Part shown: positions 6,053-33,672 of the stretch, piece by piece
Layout of the letters: each line of letters opens with the position of its first letter
Position numbering within the stretch: the first letter of the stretch is position 1
Source: Enterobacteria phage HK620
Sequence record: NC_002730.1
Direction: 5' to 3' (one strand)
Length of the DNA: 38,297 nt
The notes under the pieces: generated by a model
Seen by the model: only the letters and a program-made list of their open reading frames with translations
Told to the model about the DNA's origin: nothing
The model's database searches: none
Position numbers and translations under genes: made by a program

Positions 6053-6185
6053 TTTTGGGAACTCCTGGCTGATTAAGTACGTCGATGAGTCGTTTCCATC
6101 CGTCACGTAATTTACGGGTGATTCGTTCAAGTAAAGATTCGGAAGGGCAGCCAGCAACAGGCCACCCTGCAATGGCATATTGCAT
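6045..6185 (-). CDS. cIII: CIII, FtsH protease inhibitor
   Basis: MQYAIAGWPVAGCPSESLLERITRKLRDGWKRLIDVLNQPGVPKNG is near-identical to lambda CIII as I recall it. Confidence 0.75.
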   Translation of the reverse strand: MQYAIAGWPVAGCPSESLLERITRKLRDGWKRLIDVLNQPGVPKNG

Positions 6186-6334
6186 GGTGTGCTCCTTATT
6201 TATACATAACGGAAAACGCCTCTCGTGAAGCGTTATTGGTATGCATATAAAAAGGCCCTCACATTGGAGGGCAAAGAAGATTTCCAATAATCAGAACAAG
6301 TCGGCTCCTGTTTAGTTACGAGCGACATTGCTCC

Positions 6335-8398: not shown

Positions 8399-9115
8399 TC
8401 AAACCAGCCTTAGTTTTGTCTCAATTGCAACGCCTATAATCTTGCAGTTTCCATTGATTGGCACGAGAGGCCATGCAGGATTAAGTCCCTTGAGGTATTT
8501 ATTTCCGCCGTCGATTATCAGCTTCTTGAATGTTGCTTCGTTAGAGTCAGAAAGTTTTGCTATGACCAAGCTGCCGTTGATCGCCTCCCTTCCGGTATCG
8601 AAAAGAACGAATGTTCCCTCTGGAATGCTTAACCCAACCGGTGCCGTCATTGAATCACCTTCCACTTTAAGCCAGAACGCATTACCTTGAATATGCGCGT
8701 CAGACTCAAGCCAAACATCTATGTCTTTAATGGTGTATGGTTCGCATGCTTCACACCACGAGCCAGCCTGGATACTGCTTAACACCGGATACCTCTTTCC
8801 TGCTCTGTATTCCCCTGCATACCTTACGTTGGCATCGCTCTTAAGGCTTTCTGCCTGTTCTGCAACCTTGGCAGCAATTGACTGGCTAAAATCAGCAATA
8901 GAGACTTGCAACAATCGTGTAAAACCAGATGCAACCTCAACGTTTAGCGCGTTTCTGCCATTAAGATAATGCCCTACCGCTCCTTGGGTGATACCCAGTT
9001 CATCAGCGATTGAGTATTGGGTTATTCCCAATTCTTTCTTTTTTGACTCATACAAAGCCTTAAGCCGCTTAGCGTCTTCGAGCTGTTCTGTCGTCAGTGA
9101 TTTTTTATTTTCCAT
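8399..9115 (-). CDS. cI: CI repressor (lambda-CI-like N-terminal HTH plus C-terminal S24 autopeptidase domain)
   Basis: 238 aa; MENKKSLTTEQLEDAKRLKALYESKKKELG... parallels lambda CI; EGDSMT serine motif and FKKLI lysine motif present. Confidence 0.92.
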   Translation of the reverse strand: MENKKSLTTEQLEDAKRLKALYESKKKELGITQYSIADELGITQGAVGHYLNGRNALNVEVASGFTRLLQVSIADFSQSIAAKVAEQAESLKSDANVRYAGEYRAGKRYPVLSSIQAGSWCEACEPYTIKDIDVWLESDAHIQGNAFWLKVEGDSMTAPVGLSIPEGTFVLFDTGREAINGSLVIAKLSDSNEATFKKLIIDGGNKYLKGLNPAWPLVPINGNCKIIGVAIETKLRLV

Positions 9116-9151
9116 AGCTTAATTCTAATAGCTAAGGTACTTAAACTAAAA

Positions 9152-9192
9152 ATACCCTGAGTATTGATTGCTTTGAATACCTGTAGTATTCT
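9152..9192 (+). promoter_or_regulatory. oR/pR: palindromic operators ATACCCTGAGTAT (9152-9164) and ATACCTGTAGTAT (9177-9189); candidate pR TTGATT-N17-TATTCT; divergent pRM implied
   Basis: Same palindrome family and 25-bp spacing as at pL; sits between divergent cI and cro. Confidence 0.55.
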
Positions 9193-9221
9193 TTGTTCAT
9201 GGTTAATAACGGAGAGTGCAT

Positions 9222-9416
9222 ATGATTCGAATGACACTTGCCGATTACGCCAAAATCCATGGACAGGCTAAAGCAGCCAGTGACTTTGGTGTAATCCAGT
9301 GCGCTATCAGCAAGGCCATTCTGGCAGGCCGTAACATCATGGTTACGGTAAAGCCTGATGGCAGTGTGATTGGAGAGGAAGTTCGTCCTTTCCCAAGCAA
9401 CAAGAAAAACAAATAG
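9222..9416 (+). CDS. cro: Cro repressor
   Basis: [24 protein letters not shown]...FPSNKK parallels lambda Cro; GGAG ribosome-binding site upstream of ATG 9222. Confidence 0.85.
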
Positions 9417-9422
9417 TAACAC

Positions 9423-9467
9423 CGCTCTTTAACAGTCATGGTCCTCATTCCCGCCGAAATGCGGGAA
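9423..9467 (+). promoter_or_regulatory. nutR: boxA CGCTCTTTAAC plus boxB hairpin TCCCGCCGAAATGCGGGA
   Basis: Canonical boxA; boxB identical to the nutL copy. Confidence 0.6.
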
Positions 9468-9524
9468 TACAACGCGCATAAGTTGATGCGCATAACTTCT
9501 TATTTGTTAAGGAAATACTTACAT

Positions 9525-9803
9525 ATGCAACTTACAAGTACTCGCAAGAAAGCGAATGCAATTACAAGCAACATCCTAAATCGAATTGCTGTACGTGGTC
9601 AGCGAAAGGTTGCTGATGCATTAGGGATCAATGAATCGCAAATTTCGCGATGGAAAGACAGCTTTATCCCAAAGATGGCCATGCTTCTGGCTGTGCTGGA
9701 GTGGGGTGTTGAAGACGAGGAGTTGGCGGAACTGGCTAAGAAAGTAGCCAGAATGCTGACAAAAGAAAAAGCCCCGAAGAACGGCGAATTCTTCGAGGCC
9801 TAA
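9525..9803 (+). CDS. cII: CII transcriptional activator
   Basis: 92 aa; ...[28 protein letters not shown]... parallels lambda CII; ribosome-binding site AAGGAAA. Confidence 0.85.
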
Positions 9804-9845
9804 TGTAGAAAGACTGGATCAATCCACGGGAGTAATTATGACAAA
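9761..9845 (-). ncRNA. OOP-like antisense RNA (approximate), terminator inside the cII 3' end
   Basis: Minus strand 10-bp stem hairpin followed by CTTTTTCTTTT at about 9761-9800; 5' end not defined. Confidence 0.4.
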
Positions 9846-9984
9846 ACAACTCAGTCCTTACCAGGACAAAATTCACAAACACATACTACGTGATCGCTTC
9901 CTGTCCAGCTTCAAGCAGCCTGGTCGATTCCGGGCTGAGTTGGAAAAAGTGAAGCTGATGCAGAAGGAGAAAGGTCATGAGTAA
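9838..9984 (+). CDS. hypothetical small protein (48 aa)
   Basis: ATG start; overlaps the start of the replication initiator gene. Confidence 0.4.
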
Positions 9985-10876
9985 CATATCTAATCTAGCC
10001 GAAGCCAGAGAGGCCAGAAGGCTACAACAACCGCATCAAAGCAGCGGTAAGGGGTATGCCTTGCTGCACCGTAAAATTATGGATGTGCCGTTTTACAAGG
10101 ACGCAGAAGCAGCGCATCTGTGGGTTCACTTAATTCTCAAAGCAAAGCATACGCCTGAGTATGTAATGACTGACGCAGGAGAAATTCTGGTAGGCAGAGG
10201 GAAGCTACTTGGCGGTAGAAACTCTCTGGCGTTTGAAACAGGACTCAAACCAGATCGCGTTCAGTACCTGCTTAGAAAGTTCAAAAAACTCGGCATGATT
10301 GACTGGGTTTCACACGGTAAATTCTCAGTTTTCTCGGTAGAGAAATATGACGATTATCAGTCAAATTTTGTACCAGCAGATTACCAGCAAATTACCACCT
10401 CAAAGCCAGCAATACCAATGCCTGTAAGCAATACTGTACCAGCAGATTACCAGCAAATTACCACAGATAAAGAATATAATAATATTATCTCTAATACTGA
10501 CGTATTAGAGAGTGCCACAGTAGACAAAAAGTCTGACAAGAAAAAACCTTCCGTTAGCTGTCAGGATGTTGTCGATGCTTACCACGAAATCCTTCCTGAA
10601 GCGCCAAAAATCCGCGCACTGAATGACAAGCGTAAAAACCAGATCCGAACGTTCTGGCGCAAAGCCGGAGTGATAACCCGCCAGCTTGACGGGCATGGGT
10701 TCACGATGCAGGACTGGAGAAATTATTTGATCTACGTAGGCGAAAATTGCCGATGGATGTTCGAAGAACGCCCAAACCATCAACGCGGAACCGTCTGGCA
10801 CAAAAAGGGATTTGATTTCCTGCTTAACGACAATACCTACCTGAAAGTTCGTGAGGGTGAACACGATGACCGATAA
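9977..10876 (+). CDS. replication initiation protein (lambda O / P22 gp18 functional analogue) with internal origin iterons
   Basis: 299-aa ORF directly upstream of the DnaB-like helicase; contains direct DNA repeats followed by an AT-rich stretch. Confidence 0.7.
10370..10464 (+). repeat. origin iterons: 29-bp direct repeat GTACCAGCAGATTACCAGCAAATTACCAC x2 (10370-10398, 10436-10464), each with two ATTACCA sub-repeats
   Basis: Read directly; encodes duplicated [10 protein letters not shown] peptide; AT-rich segment follows at about 10465-10510. Confidence 0.55.
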
Positions 10877-12302
10877 TTTTTATGCGCCGCCCCATAGCAT
10901 CGAGGCAGAGCAGGCGGTGATTGGTGGATTGCTTCTGGATGATGACAGCAGTGAGCGCGTCCAGAAAGTTCTGGCGATGCTGAAGCCCGATTCATTTTAC
11001 AGCCGACCACACAAAATCCTTTTCGAAGAAATAACCAGAATGCACCGGGAGCAAAAGCCAGTAGATGGCCTGACGCTTTTCGATGAACTGGAGCGTAAAT
11101 CGTTAACGGCGTCTGTTGGCGGTTTTGCTTATATCGCTGAGATCGCAAAGAACACGCCGAGCGCCGCAAACATCGTTGCCTATGCAATGCAGGTTCGTGA
11201 AACCGCAATGGAACGCTACGCCATCAACCGCATGACTGAAGCGACGGAATTGCTCTATTCCCGCAACGGAATGACTGCAACGCAGAAGTACGAAGCTATT
11301 CAGGCGATTTTCACGCAACTGACAGACCATGCAAAAACCGGATCGCGTCGCGGCCTTCGCTCATTTGGTGAGGTCATGGAAGACTGGGTTAGCGACCTTG
11401 AGAAGCGATTTGACCCGTCAGGCGAACAGCGAGGAATGAGCACAGGGATCCCATCGCTGGACAGGATGCTGTCACCGAAAGGTCTGGTGAAAGGTTCTCT
11501 GTTTGTCATTGGCGCTCGCCCTAAGATGGGGAAAACGACGCTATACAGCCAGATGGCAATCAACTGCGCAGTGCATGAGAAAAAGCCCGCTCTGATGTTC
11601 AGCCTTGAAATGCCAGGTGACCAGATACTGGAAAAACTGGTAGGGCAGAAGTCTGGTGTTAACCCGAATATTTTTTACCTTCCGGCGACAAATGACGCTG
11701 ATGACGGCTATCAGGGTGATTACGATGGTGACTTCAACAGGGCGATCGAAACAGCCAATCGCTTGAGTGAAATCGACATGCTTTACATCGACGACACGCC
11801 GGGATTATCTCTGGCTCAAATCGTCAGCGAAAGCCGTCGAATCAAGCGAGAAAAAGGATGTGTTGGCATGATTCTGGTCGATTACCTGACACTAATGACC
11901 GCTGAAAAGGCCGATCGCAACGACCTTGCTTACGGCATGATCACCAAAGGACTGAAGAACCTTGCCAAAGAGCTTGATTGCGTTGTTGTGCTTCTGACGC
12001 AGCTTAACCGCGCATTGGAAAGCAGAACCAATAAACGCCCATTACCAAGTGACTCACGAGATACAGGGCAGATTGAACAGGATTGCGATTATTGGGTGGG
12101 GATCCATCGTGAAGGTGCTTTTGATGACAGTGTTCCACCTGGTGAAACCGAACTAATCCTTCGTCTCAATCGTCATGGCAATACCGGCACGGTGTATTGC
12201 ATTCAGGCAAATGGCGCTATTTATGACACAGACCAACAGTCCGCTGAAATGCGCCGCCGTGAACGCGAGGAACCGCAATCCAAGAAGAAAGGAGGATTCT
12301 GA
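10866..12302 (+). CDS. DnaB-like replicative DNA helicase
   Basis: N-terminal DnaB domain (IEAEQAVIGGLLLD) and Walker A GARPKMGKTT. Confidence 0.9.
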   Translation: MTDNFYAPPHSIEAEQAVIGGLLLDDDSSERVQKVLAMLKPDSFYSRPHKILFEEITRMHREQKPVDGLTLFDELERKSLTASVGGFAYIAEIAKNTPSAANIVAYAMQVRETAMERYAINRMTEATELLYSRNGMTATQKYEAIQAIFTQLTDHAKTGSRRGLRSFGEVMEDWVSDLEKRFDPSGEQRGMSTGIPSLDRMLSPKGLVKGSLFVIGARPKMGKTTLYSQMAINCAVHEKKPALMFSLEMPGDQILEKLVGQKSGVNPNIFYLPATNDADDGYQGDYDGDFNRAIETANRLSEIDMLYIDDTPGLSLAQIVSESRRIKREKGCVGMILVDYLTLMTAEKADRNDLAYGMITKGLKNLAKELDCVVVLLTQLNRALESRTNKRPLPSDSRDTGQIEQDCDYWVGIHREGAFDDSVPPGETELILRLNRHGNTGTVYCIQANGAIYDTDQQSAEMRRREREEPQSKKKGGF

Positions 12303-12377
12303 TGACCATCTACATCACTGAGCTTGTAACAGGCCTGCTGGTAATCGCAGGCCTTTTTATTTGGGGGAGAGTAAATC

Positions 12378-12584
12378 GTGGCTGAGTTTATGCTCGTCGC
12401 ACTCAAATGCGTTGGCGTTGGATGGATTCTTCTGACGTTTTTTATTGTTCTGCATAGCTACATTCGTCTTGTGAATGACGGTAAAGACCCATGGTATACG
12501 TTGTTTGGCGCTGCATTTGTCTGGGTGATTATCGGTGTTATGCCTGTTGTCGTAGCAAAAGTGGCGTGGCGTTTTGTGAGTTGA
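12378..12584 (+). CDS. hypothetical small membrane protein
   Basis: 68-aa hydrophobic ORF; a 27-aa hydrophobic ORF (12302-12385) overlapping the helicase stop precedes it. Confidence 0.4.
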   Translation: MAEFMLVALKCVGVGWILLTFFIVLHSYIRLVNDGKDPWYTLFGAAFVWVIIGVMPVVVAKVAWRFVS

Positions 12585-12591
12585 GGTAACG

Positions 12592-13002
12592 ATGAAGCAA
12601 ACAATCTTCCTCCGAAGTAAGCAACAACAGCAAGCCGCAATCAACGCCATCCTCGAAACTCCTCTCGATAAAGACAAGCCAGTCACCATCCGCATTACTG
12701 ACTACAAGCGCAACCTTGACCAGAACGCAAAATTTCACGCGATGCTGGCGGATATCGCTTGTCAGGTTCAATGGTGCGGCAAATGGTTAAAACCAGAGCA
12801 ATGGAAGGTTTTGTTGATCAGCGGTCATGCAGTGGCAACAAAGCAGGAAGCTGATGTTTTGCCCGGGCTTGAAGGCGAATACGTCAACATTCGCGAAAGC
12901 AGCGCGCAGATGAGTGTGAAGCGTATGGCAAGTCTGATCGAGTACACAACAGCCTGGGCTATTGGTCAGGGTGTCAGATTTACCGACAGGAGGTATGAAT
13001 GA
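12592..13002 (+). CDS. ninB: NinB recombination protein
   Basis: 136-aa ORF resembling lambda NinB from memory; first gene of the nin block. Confidence 0.75.
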
Positions 13003-13181
13003 GGCGACAGCGACGAAGTATCACCGACATCATCTGCGAAAACTGCAAATACCTTCCAACGAAACGCTCCAGAAATAAACGCAAGCCAATCCCAAAAGAA
13101 TCTGACGTAAAAACCTTCAACTACACGGCTCACCTGTGGGATATCCGGTGGCTTAGAGAACGTGCGAGGAAAACAAGGTGA
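12999..13181 (+). CDS. ninE: NinE-like protein
   Basis: 60 aa, [34 protein letters not shown]..., resembles lambda NinE from memory. Confidence 0.65.
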
Positions 13182-13348
13182 TTGACCCAAATCGAAGTTA
13201 CGAACAAGAAAGCGTCGAGCGGGCTTTAACGTGCGCTAACTGCGGTCAGAAGCTGCATGTGCTGGAAATTCACGTGTGTGAGCACTGCTGCGCAGAACTG
13301 ATGAGCGATCCGAATAGCTCAATGTACGAGGAAGAAGACGATGAATGA
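13178..13348 (+). CDS. ninF: NinF-like small zinc-binding protein
   Basis: GTG start overlapping the ninE stop; 56 aa with CANCGQKLH...HVCEHCC; not in the ORF track (under 60 aa). Confidence 0.55.
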
Positions 13349-14063
13349 GTTAATAAATGGCAATGCCATCAAAATGACAAGCATTGAAATCGCTGAGTTG
13401 GTGGGTAAGCGTCATGACAATGTGAAACGTACCATCGAAACGCTGGCTAAAAATGGTGTTATCCGGCTTCCTCAAATTGAGGTTTCCGAAAGAATCAATA
13501 ACTTAGGGTTCAATGTTCAGTACGAGCATTACGTCTTCGAGGGCGAACAAGGTAAGCGAGACAGTATTGTCGTTGTTGCCCAGTTGTCGCCAGAGTTCAC
13601 CGCTCGCCTTGTTGACCGCTGGCGAGAGCTTGAAGAAACTGCGGTTAATATCCCCAAAACGCTACCAGAAGCGTTGCGCCTTGCTGCTGATCTTGCTGAG
13701 CAGAAAATGCAACTGGAAAACCAGCTCGCAATTGCCGCACCTAAAGTTGAGTTTGCCGATCGCGTTGGCGAGGCCAGCGGAATTTTGATTGGAAACTTTG
13801 CAAAGGTTGTTGGAATTGGTCCAAACAAACTGTTTGCGTGGATGCGCGATCACAAAATCCTTATTGCTTCAGGTTCCCGGCGCAATGTGCCAATGCAGGA
13901 ATATATGGAGCGCGGCTATTTCACAGTGAAAGAAACAGCGGTCAACACAAATCACGGAATACAGATATCGTTCACCACAAAAATCACCGGGCGTGGTCAA
14001 CAGTGGCTGACCAGAAAGCTGCTCGATAACGGAATGCTGAAAGTAACCGGAGAGGCTGCTTAA
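13341..14063 (+). CDS. antirepressor-like protein: N-terminal Rha-type domain plus C-terminal KilAC-type domain
   Basis: 240 aa; N-terminus MTSIEIAELVGKRHDNVKRTIETLAKNG fits the Rha pattern; C-terminal half fits the KilAC pattern. Confidence 0.7.
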   Translation: MNELINGNAIKMTSIEIAELVGKRHDNVKRTIETLAKNGVIRLPQIEVSERINNLGFNVQYEHYVFEGEQGKRDSIVVVAQLSPEFTARLVDRWRELEETAVNIPKTLPEALRLAADLAEQKMQLENQLAIAAPKVEFADRVGEASGILIGNFAKVVGIGPNKLFAWMRDHKILIASGSRRNVPMQEYMERGYFTVKETAVNTNHGIQISFTTKITGRGQQWLTRKLLDNGMLKVTGEAA

Positions 14064-14353
14064 TGGTTAACCTACGCAAAGAAGCGCGCGGCAGAGAATG
14101 CCAGGTACGTATTTACGGCGTATGCAATGGTAATCCTGAAACTACAGTTCTGGCACATTACCGGATGGCTGGAATTTGCGGAACTGGAATGAAGCCTGAC
14201 GACCTGATCGGTGCATGGGCTTGTAGTGACTGCCACGCGGAAATCGACCGACGCACCCATAACCTCGACAACAAAGACGCCAGACTTTACCACCTGGAAG
14301 GCGTGATCAGGACGCAGGCGATACTGCTGAAGGAGGGGAAGATTAAGCCATGA
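14063..14353 (+). CDS. DUF1364-family protein (YbcO-like, Cys/His-rich)
   Basis: 96 aa; immediately upstream of rusA, as in cryptic lambdoid prophages. Confidence 0.65.
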   Translation: MVNLRKEARGRECQVRIYGVCNGNPETTVLAHYRMAGICGTGMKPDDLIGAWACSDCHAEIDRRTHNLDNKDARLYHLEGVIRTQAILLKEGKIKP

Positions 14354-14712
14354 ACGAATATCAGTTTGTGCTTCCATACCCGCCGTCGGTGAACACCTAC
14401 TGGCGAAGACGGGGAAGCCAATACTACATCAGCGATAAAGGCCAGAAATACCGAAAAGACGTTCAGCAAATCATCCGCCAACTCAAGTTAGACATTTTCA
14501 CCAAATCACGACTCCGCATCAAAGTCATCGCAGACGTTCCAGACTCCCGCCGCCGCGACCTCGATAACATCCTGAAAGGTTTACTCGATTCCCTTATCCA
14601 CGCCGGATTTGCGGAAGACGACGAGCAATTCGATGACATTCGCGTAATTCGTGGTGTGAAAGTACCAGGCGGACGGCTTGGAATAAAAATCACCGAACTG
14701 GAGAACGCATGA
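14350..14712 (+). CDS. rusA: RusA Holliday-junction resolvase
   Basis: 120 aa; ...VPDSRRRDLDNILKGLLDSL... matches the RusA catalytic region. Confidence 0.9.
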   Translation: MNEYQFVLPYPPSVNTYWRRRGSQYYISDKGQKYRKDVQQIIRQLKLDIFTKSRLRIKVIADVPDSRRRDLDNILKGLLDSLIHAGFAEDDEQFDDIRVIRGVKVPGGRLGIKITELENA

Positions 14713-14897
14713 ACGCCACAATTCAAACGATACCAGAGCTTCTTATCCAGACACGAGGCAATCAGACCGAAGTGGCGAGGATGCTTTCCTGCGCAAGAGG
14801 AACGGTGCTCAAGTACAACCGAGATAGCAAAGGCGAGCGTCACGTAATAGTTAACGGCGTCCTGATGGTCAAACAGGGCAAGAGGGGAAGACGATGA
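14709..14897 (+). CDS. ninH: NinH-like protein
   Basis: 62 aa; ...GNQTEVARMLSCARGTVLKY... resembles lambda NinH. Confidence 0.75.
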   Translation: MNATIQTIPELLIQTRGNQTEVARMLSCARGTVLKYNRDSKGERHVIVNGVLMVKQGKRGRR

Positions 14898-15517
14898 GAC
14901 TCGAAAGCGTAGCTAAATTTCATTCGCCAAAAAGCCCGATGATGAGCGACTCACCACGGGCCACGGCTTCTGACTCTCTTTCCGGTACTGATGTGATGGC
15001 TGCTATGGGGATGGCGCAATCACAAGCCGGATTTGGAATGGCTGCATTCTGTGGTAAGCACGAACTCAGCCAGAACGACAAACAAAAGGCTATCAACTAT
15101 CTGATGCAATTTGCACACAAGGTATCGGGGAAATACCGTGGTGTGGCAAAGCTCGAAGGAAATACTAAGGCAAAGGTGCTGCAAGTGCTCGCAACATTCG
15201 CTTATGCGGATTATTGCCGTAGTGCCGCGACGCCGGGCGCAAGATGCAGAGATTGTCACGGTACTGGCCGGGCCGTTGATATTGCCAAAACAGAATGGTG
15301 GGGGAGAGTTGTCGAGAAAGAGTGCGGAAGATGCAAAGGCGTCGGCTATTCAAGGATGCCAGCAAGCGCAGCATATCGCGCTGTAACGATGCTAATCCCA
15401 AACCTTACTCAACCCACCTGGTCACGCACTGTTAAGCCGCTGTATGACGCTCTGGTGGTGCAATGCCACAAAGAAGAGTCAATCGCAGACAACATTTTGA
15501 GTGCGGTCACACGTTAG
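14894..15517 (+). CDS. Q: late-gene antiterminator Q (lambda-Q type)
   Basis: 207 aa, essentially the lambda Q sequence as I recall it, including the zinc-finger region CRDCHGTGR...CGRCKGVG. Confidence 0.92.
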   Translation: MRLESVAKFHSPKSPMMSDSPRATASDSLSGTDVMAAMGMAQSQAGFGMAAFCGKHELSQNDKQKAINYLMQFAHKVSGKYRGVAKLEGNTKAKVLQVLATFAYADYCRSAATPGARCRDCHGTGRAVDIAKTEWWGRVVEKECGRCKGVGYSRMPASAAYRAVTMLIPNLTQPTWSRTVKPLYDALVVQCHKEESIADNILSAVTR

Positions 15518-15559
15518 CGGCATGATTGCCACGGATGGCAACATCTTTACGGCATGATA

Positions 15560-15588
15560 TTGACTTTTTGAATAAAGTTGGGTAAATT
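15560..15588 (+). promoter_or_regulatory. late promoter pR-prime (TTGACT-N17-TAAATT) with overlapping Q-utilisation region
   Basis: Hexamers read directly; lambda-like context downstream of Q. Confidence 0.6.
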
Positions 15589-15622
15589 TGACCCAACGAT
15601 GGATAAATGCACTCGTTAAATA

Positions 15623-15653
15623 AAGCCCTGAGTTAATAGCTCGGGGCTTTTTC
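15623..15653 (+). terminator. rho-independent terminator (tR-prime-like) shortly downstream of the late promoter
   Basis: AAGCCCTGAG-loop-CTCGGGGCTT followed by TTTT. Confidence 0.6.
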
Positions 15654-16538
15654 ATTTCTGCAATCCGGTCAGGACTTTCGAGTTAATGCGTGCTGCACGA
15701 CACGTTGACACTCATACGCGAGAGCCCTGAGCCAGATTGAAGGCTATCAGGTAAGAGCATATCGACGCACTGATAGGGCTGGATTGGAAGATCATTCAGA
15801 GACCCGGCAGACAGATGTGTTCTTTCCGATGGTTTTCGTAAGCGACTTTGCGGTTTTTTAGAAACTGATCACAAAGATAAATGCAAACGAAGAAATGTAT
15901 CTGGCCGTAGCTTAACCGCTAAACACCAGTGAGGTATTCCAGTTCCTCATCAACGAATCTGGCGCACTGGCCCGGTGTGATTAATAATGGGCACACAACA
16001 GGTAAGAGCATTAAAGAACTGGCAAAGAGCTTAACGGTCTGCGAAAGCATTTCTTAGTGGCACAACTGGCCGGTACAACTGAGTGCTCTTTCCGGTGTGG
16101 TGAATGCGCAGGCTGATGCGCGCAGGAGAGCTTCGGAAGAACAAGGTGCCTGTATACAAGCCGGAGATCAGCGCCGGCCACCACAGCCAAATCCACCCAG
16201 AGCAAAACCGTTGTTCATCCTTACCATTCCCTCAGTATTTTGGGCTACAACCCTCAGCCCATTTTTTAAAGCGTACTTCCACCAAGAACCAGACCTAACC
16301 AACTCATTGCTGACACTCTGTGGATACGGTTGTCTAGTGCGCTTTAAAAAAGAAAACCCAGCATCAATGGCTGGGCTTCGTGATATGAGCGGCATGTATT
16401 GTTGGCGCAATCCACGCCTGATTTGCTCATGAATGCGGTCACGAACAAACCCGTTACAAATCAACCGTAACCCGGATTTGTTCAAGCGACCATATCCATA
16501 ATTCCTAATTTGAACAGATCCCCTTCTGGGGGTAAGAC

Positions 16539-29794: not shown

Positions 29795-31144
29795 ATGGCT
29801 ACGTGGCAACAGGGTATTAATTCTGGTGGTTTTCTGGCTGGCATCGGTACGCAAAATGAGAATGCGCCAAAGGCAAGCGACATTAACGCAACGCTTGGTC
29901 TGATCCGCGAAAACAATGAACTGGCTCGCTCAGGTGTAAATAACGTTGGCCTGACCGCGTTACGTGGTCTGGCTGGAGTTGCTGATATTTACAATCAGGA
30001 ACAGCAACAGAAAGCTATTAGTGCGTTCAATAAGGTTCACGCTGATGCATGGGCTTCTGGTGATCCATCTGGACTATTTAAGTTTGCCCAGGAAAATCCA
30101 GCGTTTGTTGCGCAGGCACAACAGGCGTTTTCCGGTCTTAATGAGCAGCAACGCAACGATATGGGCGATTTAGCCATGAGGGCTAACGTCGCTCTTTCCC
30201 AGGGACCGGAAGCCTACAGTAAATTCATTACTGACAACAAGGACAGGTTAAATCGCGTGGGGGCGAATGCTGACTGGATGATTCAGACAGGTATCCAGAA
30301 TCCAGAGCAGCTATCACACATGCTGACTACTATGTCTCTCGGTGCACTTGGGCCAGAAAAGGCTTTTGCTGTTCAGGATAAGATGGTTGGTCGCCAGCAG
30401 GAGCAGCAAAGAATTAACGAAACCATTCGCAATAATGACATGACGAATGCGAGGGCTATTAGGGGGCAGGATCTTTCCTATAAGGCTCAAATGGCAAGAC
30501 TGAATCACGACAAGTATGTGTTTAAGCAGTCACAGGCGGCCCTTGAAAGAGCAGGACAACTTCAGGATATGGATGTTTTGTCTCTTAACTCACAGATAGC
30601 AGCGACGGGAATTGATCCGCTAACCGGTAAAGCTGCAACGTCAGCCAGAATGTCTCAGGCTAAGAGATGGCTTGATGGCAACAATAATTACAACAATGCG
30701 TTGATTACTGGTGAGCGAGGGATAGAGAAAATAGATTCTTTGCTTGGTAAGAAGGAGCTTGAAGGTATCGGTCGCTTCGAAGGAAGAAATATAGATGGCT
30801 TCACAAGTGCTGAAGGGCTTGCAAACCGTAATGCGATAGAAGAATTAAAGTCGGGTGCGTTTGTCCAGAACGTGCAGACTATGCGAGGTATGGGTAGCCT
30901 CTCCAATGCTGAAGGACAAAAACTGGAAAACCTTATCGCGAAACTCGATATAACACAGCCTGAAGAGGTCGTCAGAAAACAGTTATCTGAAATCCGATCG
31001 CAATATTCTGTATTTCAAAAGGTTGCAGCAAGGGAGGCTGAATCAATGGGATATAGTTCATCAGGTTATGACACATATGTTAGTGAGCGAAAATCAGGAA
31101 GCGACAGCAATAAGTCCGGTTTCTCGTCTTTATGGGGTGATTAA
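29795..31144 (+). CDS. DNA ejection protein, P22 gp20-like
   Basis: 449 aa; position in the ejection-protein block. Confidence 0.65.
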
Positions 31145-33312
31145 TGGCTAAAGCATGGAAAGATGTTGTCGCTTCTCCACAGTATCAGGCGTTAACTGAA
31201 GAACAGAAAGCACAGGCTCAAGCGCAATATTTTGATGAGGTTGTTGCCCCTAAGGCTGGTGACAAATGGGCTGAAGCAAGAGATCAGTTTTATGCAGCAT
31301 ACCCTCCGCATCAGCAGCAGAAAGAAGAACCATCATTGATGCAACAAGCTGGCGATTGGCTCACAGGTGGTCAAAGTGCAGGGCAAATTGCAGAACAGGC
31401 TGGTCGTGGTCTGGTAAACATACCATTTGACGTATTGCAGGGTGGCGCAAGTCTGATTAATGCAATCAGCCAGGGGCTTGGTGGCCCCAAGATTTTGGAT
31501 GATGTTTATCGTCCTGTCGATCGACCTACAGACCCTTACGCGCAAGCCGGTGAAACAATTGGTGGGTATCTCCTGCCAATTGGCACAGCGGCAAAAGCTG
31601 CTGGAGCGCCAGCAAAGCTCGCTGGAGATATCGGTTCCGCAGGAAACATGATTGCAGGTTCTCTTGCTGATGCTGCAAATCAGGATGGAGACTTTGCACA
31701 AAATGCTGCCATTAACGGTGGTATCAATATTGGTGCTCAAGGCGTTCTTTCAGGTGTCGGCCGCGTTATTGCGCCAAGGGTTTCACAGGCTCTTGGTGGT
31801 GCAGCACTGAATTCTGCTAATGATGTTTCGAAAATGGCAAAGTCTGGTACAGGAAGAGAGATTATTGCCAGACAGTCAGCTAACGTGTCAGACGAAATAG
31901 CAAAAGCAGCAGATACTGCTGGAATAGATATCAACGCATTAACTCCTGGCATGAGATCAGGTAGTCGTGGTCTTGCTCAGGCGGAGGGGATTCTGGCGTC
32001 AAAGCCCGGAATTACACAGGATGCACACACCAAAGCATTCAGTGAAATAGAGTCGAAATTTAACTCAGCATTGGATGAGTTTGGGGCTGAAGCAGGAACT
32101 GCATCAGAAAAAAGTGCAGCCATAAAACAAAGGGTTTTGGCAAGTATTGATAAAATGAAAAATTCAGAAAAGGCCGCATGGGATAGCGTCCGCTCCACGA
32201 TGCCTGACGCAAAGGCCAGAATGTCAAACCTGAACGCTACAATTCAGGGTGATATTTTGGCTGGCATGCCGCTAACTCCTGAGATGAAACAATTCGCATC
32301 TGCTTATGCTAAAACTGGTAAAAATGGAATCACGTTTGATGCCATGAAGGCATGGCGAAGTAAACTTGCTGACGCTGAGCAGAAGTATATAAGGTCTGGT
32401 GAGGCAAATACGGCAAGGCGCATGGCTGAGCTTCGTGATGCAGCCACGGAAGATATGCGCATAATGGCTCAAAATGGCGGTTTTCTTGATGACTGGCAAA
32501 AAGCTAATGATCTGTCAAAGGCAAGATTTACAGCACAAGAACAGGCTGAAGCAGCGTTTGGTAGAGACCTTGCAACTGATCAGTTGGTAACTAATGGCTC
32601 TAAGGCGTTACAGGGCTCAGCAAAAAGTGGAACAGGTCAGTTTCATAAAATAATAAGCGCCCTACCTGAGTCGGAACGCGCGCCAGCAATTGCATCAATA
32701 TTGCAAGATACGGTATCGCAAGGGGTGCGCGGAGGTAAGTCTGAAGGGGCTGGAATTAAGCATATCGCGACTATTCTTACCCCGCAAAACGTGAAGGCAA
32801 TTAGTCGATATTCTCCAGAACTTGGCAGGATTGCAAGTTCATACGGTGAACTTGCAAGAGCAGCAACAAAGCCACTTCGATATGTTGAACAGACAGGGCG
32901 CTCTATGCCAGCCATTAGCACTCTTGAGAAGGGCCTTCATCCAGTTTTAGAGAGCGTATTGTCTGGCGCTTTTCCAACCGCTGGCGCTATCGCAGGGTTC
33001 TCTGGAGGAGGTGTTATTGGAGCAATAGTGGGTGGCGCTGCAGGTGGAGCAATTGATGCAATAGCAAAAGGATCGATAGCGAAATTATCCGCAACCAGAA
33101 GCGGTCGTTACGCTATTGAAAAGGCTGTTCAAGAGGCAACAAAGGCAGTTAAGGTTGGGGCAAGTGATGGCTCATTAGCGGCGGCTGAACGCAGATTTAT
33201 GGCAAATAAGGCCGCCGTAAAAGCAATACGCGATGCACTAGGAAACGAAGAGTTCCAGCGTTTGTCGAGGGCTGGGATTGTGGCATCGCTAAGCGGAATG
33301 GCACAGGAGTAA
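31144..33312 (+). CDS. DNA ejection protein, P22 gp16-like
   Basis: 722 aa; Ala/Gly-rich; position. Confidence 0.65.
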
Positions 33313-33642
33313 TTAGTCATCCATGGATGGATTGAGCTTATCTCGTGTTGATGTGGCAATTTTCCCAACATTTTTCAACCAAGATTTTAAGAAGGATATG
33401 TCGTCCTTAATATCATGAATATCCTCATTCTTTATACGATCAACCTTATCCTCTAAGCTCTCTATAGAACGCTCAATGCTAGACAGAGAGATTTTTAAGT
33501 CCCCTTGCTCACGTTCCAGTGAGGATTTGAGAGCACAATATTCGTTTTCTAGAATTCCTATTTTTTTTGTTAGAGAGTGCATTCGATACTCATACACCAA
33601 ACCAGAAACGACTAATGCAGCCAACAGAAACCATTCAAACAC
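33313..33642 (-). CDS. small membrane-anchored coiled-coil protein, unknown function
   Basis: GTG at 33642 five nt after a perfect AAGGAGG site; N-terminal TM segment FEWFLLAALVVSGLVYEY then heptad-rich region; AT-rich; the track's upstream extension lacks a ribosome-binding site. Confidence 0.5.
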   Translation of the reverse strand: MFEWFLLAALVVSGLVYEYRMHSLTKKIGILENEYCALKSSLEREQGDLKISLSSIERSIESLEDKVDRIKNEDIHDIKDDISFLKSWLKNVGKIATSTRDKLNPSMDD

Positions 33643-33672
33643 ACCAACCTCCTTAGTTTTTCGCAGGATACC

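Follow-up and report, generated by a model that had tools for sequence, protein, structure and literature searches.

We analysed the junction of the replication genes with the nin region in the early-right (pR) operon of a 38,297-nucleotide stretch of phage DNA (sequence record NC_002730.1, Enterobacteria phage HK620; the whole stretch is called the window, and positions are window positions unless stated otherwise), where two small open reading frames (ORFs) of 27 and 68 amino acids (aa) follow a gene for a DnaB-type replicative helicase. In nucleotide comparison the queried stretch proved 100% identical to Escherichia phage HK633. By sequence, the first of the two frames, ORF27, is the phage gene ninA, and ninA contains the intrinsic (Rho-independent) terminator tR2. 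The sequence appears to be dual-coded, with an N-dependent terminator set within a translated, bridging mini-cistron. The second frame, ORF68, appears to be a real, separable and dispensable accessory gene in a variable slot. Taken as a whole, a dual-coded ninA/tR2 cassette followed by a separate, exchangeable accessory gene is very likely the right account of this locus. The element itself is already known, as NinA/tR2, since 1982, and nothing here suggests a new kind of system.

A preliminary description of this DNA had recorded a hydrophobic 27-aa ORF overlapping the helicase stop codon and, after it, a 68-aa ORF with two predicted transmembrane (TM) helices. Both are present (Table 1): the helicase stop TGA at 12300-12302 shares its A with the ATG at 12302 (tgATGa), and ORF68 carries two hydrophobic spans. 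The strong intrinsic terminator within ORF27 had been overlooked. The idea that both encode small membrane peptides holds for ORF68, a predicted small membrane protein, and is not quite right for ORF27, which is NinA/tR2. The other option offered, that the frames are non-coding spacer, fails for ORF27, which carries the lambda tR2 and a conserved, translation-competent NinA frame. Conservation of the reading frames in related phages, proposed there as a check, was examined and found for both. Both ORFs recur in hundreds of phages and prophages and match phage protein families over their full length. In the HK633 record ORF68 is annotated as hypothetical protein HK633_054, and ORF27 and the terminator are left unannotated.

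The tR2 terminator inside ninA

The terminator has the form AGGCCTGC-N8-GCAGGCCT followed by TTTTATTT (12331-12362). A stem of 8 bp, six of them GC pairs, closes an 8-nt loop (12331-12354), and the T-tract TTTTTATTT follows at 12354-12362 on the + strand. It has the marks of an intrinsic terminator, a GC-rich stem-loop with a U-tract directly behind it on the strand transcribed in the operon. It folds at -15.7 kcal/mol (z = -3.6), and none of 200 shuffled sequences folded as well. Hairpin, U-tract and the Shine-Dalgarno (SD) sequence behind them are base-for-base identical to those of lambda, the identity in the alignment running from AACAGGCC to GGGGGAGAG. The stretch from the ATG to GGGGGAGAG is, identically or nearly so, the lambda ren-ninB spacer (40,568-40,648; Kroger & Hobom 1982 as cited in PMC4824070), which holds lambda tR2. 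Annotation of relatives agrees with this assignment: the record of phage Lahn1 labels the same 32 nt 'tR2 terminator' and places 'ninA: putative open reading frame' on the same bases, and that of mEp235 annotates a rho-independent terminator at this position. In the single minimum free energy (MFE) fold of 12296-12390 the terminator hairpin was retained and no competing helix was predicted. Rfam at gathering thresholds gave no family for the tR2 region, its sole match in the window being the cIII thermoregulator.

Comparison of relatives shows, at the level of sequence, that the structure of tR2 and not merely its sequence is conserved through compensation. Eight distinct hairpin variants were found, in which 98.4% of cells pair. 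Stem pair 4 flips from C-G to G-C, pair 7 changes from G-C to A-U, a step whose G.U intermediate was also seen, and three more pairs vary solely via wobble. The covariation score was reached by 3 of 500 shuffles, and sliding the 3' partner reduced pairing to 33-61%. Where the compensatory changes fall on the 5' arm they are synonymous, and those of the 3' arm make conservative replacements (Gly to Ala, Ala to Val).

One locus (L016, ~1452-1484) carries an inverted tR2 loop with its stem preserved (AGGCCTGC-GATTACCT-GCAGGCCT, -16.3 kcal/mol). The inversion changes the NinA core from GLLVIAGL to GLRLPAGL and looks like the flip of a palindrome. A seeming loss of tR2 in another locus (L080) proved to be a noisy copy with scattered indels. 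A further terminator-like site inside ORF68 (12414-12439) has three GC pairs and lies in Phe/Ile/Leu-rich coding sequence, and was treated as chance.

The behaviour of this terminator has been measured in lambda. Li et al. studied lambda tR2, together with the sequence that naturally precedes it, in a two-colour reporter (PMC4824070). The start site for NinA translation is given as 30 bp before tR2 and the stop as 16 bp past it (PMC4824070, citing Kroger & Hobom 1982 and Liu et al. 2013); the geometry found here matches, with the hairpin 30 bp past the NinA AUG. NinA initiation was described as 'not weak': expression of the upstream reporter was halved and was restored by mutation of the ribosome-binding site or the AUG, an effect attributed to non-stop mRNA decay of terminated transcripts (PMC4824070). 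NinA translation lowered tR2 efficiency by only about 10%, and efficiency depended on the upstream stop codon, being near zero when this lay a few bp from the hairpin and reaching its maximum of about 0.9 beyond about 27 nt (PMC4824070). The distance from helicase stop to hairpin in HK633 is 28 nt.

ninA as a reading frame and a shared cassette

ORF27 (MTIYITELVTGLLVIAGLFIWGRVNRG), which starts with ATG in the ORF listing, aligned through residues 1-26 with profile positions 1-26 of 27 of phrog_5907 (expectation value, E = 1.1e-18). The same profile matched lambda NinA at 1.6e-19, HK97 gp56 at 6.9e-18, and the Erwinia and Pantoea copies at 7e-3 and 8e-4. In the HK630 record the 27-aa ORF is annotated 'NinA protein', and ORF27 occupies the place of NinA as the first nin-region ORF after the replication genes, linked to its neighbours by overlapping stop and start codons. 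Relative to lambda, the first ten codons carry one synonymous and one Ile/Val change. As here, lambda ninA has stop/start coupling at both ends and stands after the replication genes and before the nin genes. The partners differ: upstream, the DnaB-type helicase here (TGATG) in place of ren in lambda (ATGA); downstream, ORF68 with a NinA tail of GRVNRG in place of ninB with GRGKS. The NinA copies of HK620, P22, HK630 and Lahn1 (phrog_5907) belong to one family and cassette with ORF27, with no difference of substance.

The start of ninA is served by an SD inside the helicase coding sequence, at 6-nt spacing from the ATG, whose anti-SD duplex is stronger than that of the helicase's own SD (-11.6 vs -6.2 kcal/mol). 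Hydropathy analysis gave one hydrophobic span in ORF27. Stem and U-tract supply the codons of its hydrophobic core, and GGGGGAGAG, the SD of the next gene, those of the Gly-Arg in its tail, as would be expected if ORF27 were only a terminator with spacer and its open frame, hydrophobicity and basic tail were by-products. Against this, the hydrophobic core is confined to the ninA frame, the other two frames of the hairpin giving a stop or a hydrophilic peptide. The compensatory stem changes noted above likewise came with conservative changes of the peptide. At the overlap with ORF68, residues 2-3 of ORF68 differ among variants, all of which retain a Gly codon (GGC/GGT/GGA) and a stop (TGA/TAA) in the ninA frame. 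The G5 run past the U-tract acts as a slippery homopolymer: one G more gives a 44-aa ninA ORF (L052), and one G fewer fuses NinA in frame to an ORF68 homolog, making a 93-aa protein found as a rare variant in Salmonella enterica (P0013/P0014).

The segment 12296-12392 matched 413 phage records, all but 8 of them at 90-100% identity, including lambda, 434, P22, HK620-like phages and phages carrying Shiga toxin (Stx) genes of types Stx1 and Stx2. About 196 loci, anchored on ORF68 or on the exact hairpin, were collected; the same prophage recurs there in many strains, and weight was placed on distinct contexts rather than on locus counts. The homology of the cassette typically runs from 12301/12302 to ~12371 (~70 nt). 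On its left side, seven unrelated upstream gene ends (ren, the DnaB-type helicase, an HK97/P22-type P and four others) join at the ATG, five through ATGA and the rest through TGATG or TAAATG. All seven supply an SD, with duplex energies of -5.9 to -11.6 kcal/mol. SDs that strong occur at only 5.6% of window positions, so that the probability of one in each of the seven contexts is about 2e-9. Right of the cassette stand about eight different genes: ninB, two types of ORF68, and proteins of 92, 108, 71, 90 and 65 aa. With few exceptions their start overlaps the ninA stop or lies against it (ATGA, GTGA, GTGGCTGA, ATGGTTAA or TAAATG), and the C-terminal tail of NinA varies with the downstream partner. 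In phage PA28 (L088, 89-741; also L020 and L165) an HNH endonuclease gene lies between ren and tR2 with its TAA against the hairpin. On the distance-efficiency data of PMC4824070, termination should be strongly suppressed in this natural 'zero-spacer' variant.

Diverged copies of ninA were found in Pantoea sp. 1.19, in Erwinia phage Midgardsormr38 (an annotated 30-aa coding sequence, ORF71) and in three viral contigs. Their peptides read MHQ(T/A/I)YTTE(L/K)... (T/S)GLLI(I/L)(A/V)(A/G)L..W RWAGRRG. All five begin in a TAATG start overlap behind a G-rich, SD-like motif, and four of the five end in a TGATG or GTGA overlap with the next gene; the N-termini of these next genes differ. The ratio of nonsynonymous to synonymous change (omega), from ~21 codons with two gaps placed by hand, was 0.17 for lambda vs Midgardsormr38 (differences 5:4:13 by codon position), 0.44 for lambda vs Pantoea and 0.38 for Pantoea vs Midgardsormr38. 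Lambda and P22 differ by five synonymous and one nonsynonymous change (omega 0.05). The same comparisons in shifted frames gave 1.3-2.9, so that third-position-biased divergence with omega of 0.05-0.44 is seen only in the ninA frame. The SD at this site, the SDs in all upstream contexts and the omega values below 1 lend indirect support to translation of ninA in HK633.

A second hairpin type follows the same start. HK97 gp56 shares the ten 5' codons, the upstream contexts and the codon positions of the terminator with ORF27, and differs in an unrelated stem (GGGGCTA...TAGCCC with a U-tract, -12.6 kcal/mol, z = -3.7), in its central peptide GAIYTVALFYW and in its length, the frame being open for 32 aa and overlapping the gp60 start by 14 nt. 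Five of the seven upstream contexts recur among 97 HK97-type loci. In about 94% of these copies an open frame of 22-32 aa ends within ~14 nt of the next start (one at -23); 6 of the 97 copies are disrupted.

The arrangement invites comparison with leader-peptide attenuators of the trp and pyrBI type, the latter discussed in PMC4824070. In both, a short translated ORF runs over an intrinsic terminator, and the position of the ribosome can in principle affect folding of the hairpin. Unlike the attenuators, the locus described here has no antiterminator hairpin predicted in the MFE fold and no runs of regulatory codons, and readthrough comes about by N antitermination rather than by ribosome stalling.

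ORF68 and the surrounding genes

ORF68 matched phrog_1165 from residue 1 to 68 of 68 (E = 3.1e-38). A large protein database has only 38 clusters at 90% identity for this small family of Enterobacterales prophages, most full-length members having 68 aa and all named ones being 'hypothetical proteins' of Escherichia or Salmonella. An exhaustive profile search of 1.84 billion representatives returned 27 proteins, including distant homologs of 62-66 aa that match phrog_1165 at 1e-10 to 1e-13. ORF68 was found in 358 of 5,426 complete E. coli genomes (about 7%). Three allele types exist, each of exactly 68 codons, with deep pairs at 58-63% nucleotide identity; in these deep comparisons omega was 0.26-0.34 in frame vs 0.7-1.25 out of frame, a modest constraint. 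W16, G53 and P56 are invariant in the family, W49, K61 and W64 nearly so, and the turn G-K/x-D-P is conserved. Hydropathy gave two hydrophobic spans in all three allele types, and AlphaFold2 modelled ORF68 as a hairpin of two helices (residues 2-33 and 38-67), the predicted local distance difference test (pLDDT) score being 91. On these models we are confident in predicting a two-helix membrane protein. For its start, SD pairing strongly favours the GTG at 12378 (-8.8 kcal/mol) over an internal ATG at 12390 (-1.5). On the opposite strand, a 112-aa ORF (12357-12695) spans the junction of ORF68 and ninB, a junction that is not conserved among relatives.

The gene is separable from the cassette. 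ORF68 homologs occur with or without ninA/tR2, and lambda, P22 and HK97 lack ORF68. A genome scan with a subset of the family alignment placed distant homologs upstream of ninB homologs in Pantoea, Erwinia and Izhakiella prophages. In three environmental viral contigs (L325-L327, ~1480-1692) the family member directly follows an ORF ending in ...GGF, its ATG forming a TGATG overlap with the stop of that ORF and no ninA/tR2 intervening; the last residues of that ORF are those of the HK633 helicase, and should it be the helicase, the primary link of ORF68 would be to the replication module. In other lambdoid phages (L101, L095 and L159, 108 aa; L116, 90 aa) the slot after tR2 holds other small proteins with one N-terminal TM segment, beginning MADWQIPIIIL... 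and MKDLLVTLNVG...; the 108-aa gene shares the GTGGCTGA overlap with ORF68. In H-19B, a functional Stx1 phage, and in related loci (L006 = H-19B, L075-L081, ~1501-1704), a stop at codon 15 makes a natural ORF68 knockout.

Searches for a known function gave little. ORF68 had no PADLOC match and none above threshold in Pfam or NCBIfam; PADLOC likewise gave no match for ORF27, the NinA-ORF68 fusion P0013 or P0027. The nearest Pfam hit, T4SS_pilin (E = 0.027, 15 bits vs a cut-off of 26.6), and an NCBIfam antiporter subunit below threshold (E = 0.026) were set aside as matches of hydrophobic composition. The best PDB sequence-profile match had E = 1.2, and Foldseek against BFVD and PDB returned none below 0.6, the matches being generic helical hairpins.

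Class II holins, such as pinholin S21-68, and T4 Imm are small two-TM membrane proteins similar in size to ORF68. By general description, ORF68 shares with pinholin S21-68 and T4 Imm two TM helices joined by a short turn. Unlike class II holins, it is encoded in the delayed-early nin region, has no long charged C-terminal tail (it ends in AKVAWRFVS, net charge only +2) and has no holin, immunity or defence profile match, PHROG and Pfam giving no holin hit. It also stands outside the lysis cassette, the holin and lysozyme genes of HK633 lying ~4 kb downstream, past Q and pR'.

The features of the junction are collected in Table 1. The helicase gene occupies 32210-33646 in the numbering of the HK633 record. 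Downstream, the nin genes are chained by ATGA-type overlaps with strong SDs (for the start at 12999 a duplex of -11.6 kcal/mol); this chain, at 12999-13002 and at other junctions, fits the description of the lambda ninR region as a 'chain of interlinked genes'. A scan of 9000-16000 for promoters found pR' (15560-15588) as the only promoter-like site, a consensus scan of this kind being unable to exclude weak promoters. With ORF27 and ORF68 at or past tR2 and no promoter-like site for them, their expression from the prophage is unlikely.

Table 1 Features at the junction of the replication genes with the nin region (window positions)
Feature	Position	Strand	Evidence
DnaB-type replicative helicase gene (HK633_053), upstream cistron	10866..12302	+	Pfam DnaB E = 3e-31, DnaB_C E = 3e-60
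Shine-Dalgarno AGGAGG of ORF27/ninA, within helicase coding sequence	12290..12295	+	anti-SD duplex -11.6 kcal/mol
TGATG stop/start overlap of helicase and ninA, also mosaic junction	12300..12304	+	sequence; homology onset 12301/12302
ORF27 = ninA mini-cistron, 27 aa, one hydrophobic span, basic tail	12302..12385	+	phrog_5907, E = 1e-18
tR2 intrinsic (Rho-independent) terminator	12331..12362	+	terminator scan, fold, identity to lambda, annotation in Lahn1 and mEp235
GGGGGAGAG, SD of the next gene (here ORF68) and right end of the ninA/tR2 cassette	12363..12371	+	duplex energy, homology end
GTGGCTGA, 8-nt overlap of ORF68 start with ninA stop (translational coupling site)	12378..12385	+	sequence
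ORF68, predicted small two-helix inner-membrane protein, HK633_054, phrog_1165, GTG start	12378..12584	+	profile match E = 3e-38
ninB (Orf recombination mediator), next nin-region gene, HK633_055	12592..13002	+	Pfam NinB E = 5e-55

Elsewhere in the window, the lambda cIII thermoregulator element was found at 6140-6198 on the - strand (Rfam RF01804, 88.5 bits, E = 2e-20). The CI repressor gene (~8897-9073, - strand; 30241-30417 in the HK633 record) is annotated as truncated by an in-frame stop codon, and on that account HK633 may be a variant that forms clear plaques or does not lysogenise. Apart from tR2, the two strongest terminator-like hairpins fall in known elements of lambda type, at 15622-15650 (+), just past the annotated pR'/qut, and at 9769-9801 (-), within a segment annotated as similar to lambda oop RNA. 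The former we take to be, probably, the tR'/6S RNA terminator.

Mechanism, alternatives and significance

The lambdoid phage HK633 has both a lambda-like N and a Q/qut late switch, and the logic of lambda tR2 should therefore apply in it. In this scheme tR2 would stop pR transcripts past the helicase gene unless RNA polymerase is N-modified. The ~28-nt 5' half of ninA would hold the upstream stop codon far enough off for the terminating ribosome not to suppress termination. On N-antiterminated transcripts, ribosomes translating ninA would melt the hairpin and pass to the SD and GTG of ORF68, so that ninA translation would bridge the terminator and keep the coupled chain of nin genes translated. 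Transcripts ending at tR2 would carry a stop-less ninA and be non-stop mRNAs, as was shown in the lambda reporter. ORF68 would be made only as a delayed-early, non-essential inner-membrane protein.

Several observations weigh against the account of a translated ninA over tR2 with a separate, functional ORF68. The PA28-type phages retain the hairpin without the 5' half of ninA, the endonuclease stop directly abutting it, and the Pantoea copy runs for 56 aa with a stop that is not coupled to the next start. About 3-6% of natural ninA copies have lost the start or carry a frameshift or a nonsense codon; the exceptions include single copies with an ATA and with a GTG start, one with a +1 frameshift and a stop, the G-run slip to a 44-aa ORF, a copy whose left arm bears an in-frame 18-nt duplication, and the loop-inverted one. 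Close E. coli and Salmonella copies of ninA show seven synonymous and seven nonsynonymous distinct changes, nucleotide conservation making codon tests weak. The test among them, which covered the 5' ten codons and whose shifted-frame control was invalid owing to stops in those frames, was not significant and was uninformative, so that the question was settled only with the diverged Erwinia and Pantoea copies; there, the short, hand-gapped alignment counts on the same side. For ORF68, comparing the E. coli with the Salmonella type gives an omega of 0.74, polymorphisms among close alleles are spread evenly over codon positions (16:12:13), and eight H-19B-type loci carry the nonsense allele (GGA to TGA at codon 15). 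Finally, the whole nin region is dispensable in lambda nin5: the deletion 40,503-43,307 ('ren-ninA-ninI') removes the ninA/tR2 region (PMC3349717), and the phage grows without the antitermination factor NusB (PMC3177189).

A different account, compatible with terminator function, is that the 70-nt cassette is conserved mainly as a recombination 'linker' by which replication and nin modules are swapped. Homology that starts at the ATG and ends at the SD between unrelated flanks, with seven partners on the left and about eight on the right, is what such swapping would leave. The ten 5' codons common to phages with lambda-type and HK97-type hairpins imply crossovers inside the cassette, and the occurrence of ORF68 homologs with or without it agrees. 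A linker role leaves unexplained both the conservation of an SD in non-homologous upstream flanks and the compensatory stem changes and frame-specific substitutions of the diverged copies, and it follows from conservation as much as it brings it about. As the main reason for conservation we regard it as possible, if somewhat doubtful; it probably contributes to the near-identity among coliphages.

It is also conceivable that NinA, ORF68 or both are membrane-active effectors (superinfection-exclusion, host-modulating or toxin-like) and that the peptides themselves are under selection. The amino-acid-level constraint on NinA from Escherichia to Erwinia phages keeps lytic-phase roles alive, the size and charge layout of NinA resemble those of small single-pass peptides, ORF68 comes from a conserved family of two-TM proteins in which certain Trp, Gly and Pro positions are invariant, and the slot after tR2 often holds other small membrane-anchored proteins (108 and 90 aa). 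The exclusion factor proposed in the preliminary description nevertheless finds no support in PADLOC, Pfam, NCBIfam or structural matches. Genes at or beyond tR2 with no promoter-like site nearby are expected to be silent in the lysogen, where exclusion would need them. ORF68 is truncated in the H-19B-type Stx1 phages and absent from lambda, P22 and HK97, and the NinA C-terminal tail differs by downstream partner. An effector role is in our view unlikely. That ORF27 is only terminator and spacer, without selection on translation or peptide, is very unlikely: near-identity that extends to synonymous sites (all but 8 of 413 records), the disrupted copies, the PA28 arrangement and the small (about 10%) effect of translation on termination in the lambda reporter all suit it, and it runs against the SDs of at least -5.9 kcal/mol strength in seven of seven unrelated contexts, the stop/start overlaps at both ends over many partner genes, the frame-specific divergence and the activity of the NinA start in vivo in lambda constructs.

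Within the preferred account of a dual-coded ninA/tR2 cassette, a more specific proposal is that selection acts on the NinA peptide or its translation as well as on the terminator, with tR2 serving as a 'terminate-and-destroy' switch or the peptide as a membrane-active delayed-early factor. We put this forward tentatively and consider it doubtful. If the first form held, full-length NinA and coupled ORF68 would be made only from N-antiterminated transcripts, stop-less ninA would recruit transfer-messenger RNA (tmRNA) rescue and speed decay of the upstream replication-gene mRNA, and replication-gene dosage would be tied to the N decision. In the second, the conserved hydrophobic peptide of 26-30 aa would itself be the membrane-active delayed-early factor.

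The main value of the finding lies in annotation, as the HK633 record lists neither the terminator nor ninA at the place of the key regulatory element in the early-right operon. ORF68 would add a further small, widespread membrane protein to the accessory genes of phages. From Escherichia to Erwinia phages, an 84-nt sequence appears to serve as a covarying hairpin, a constrained peptide frame and the ribosome-binding signals of two genes. The comparative result extends beyond the single-phage literature consulted and would provide a clean natural case in which codes overlap and translation bridges a terminator.

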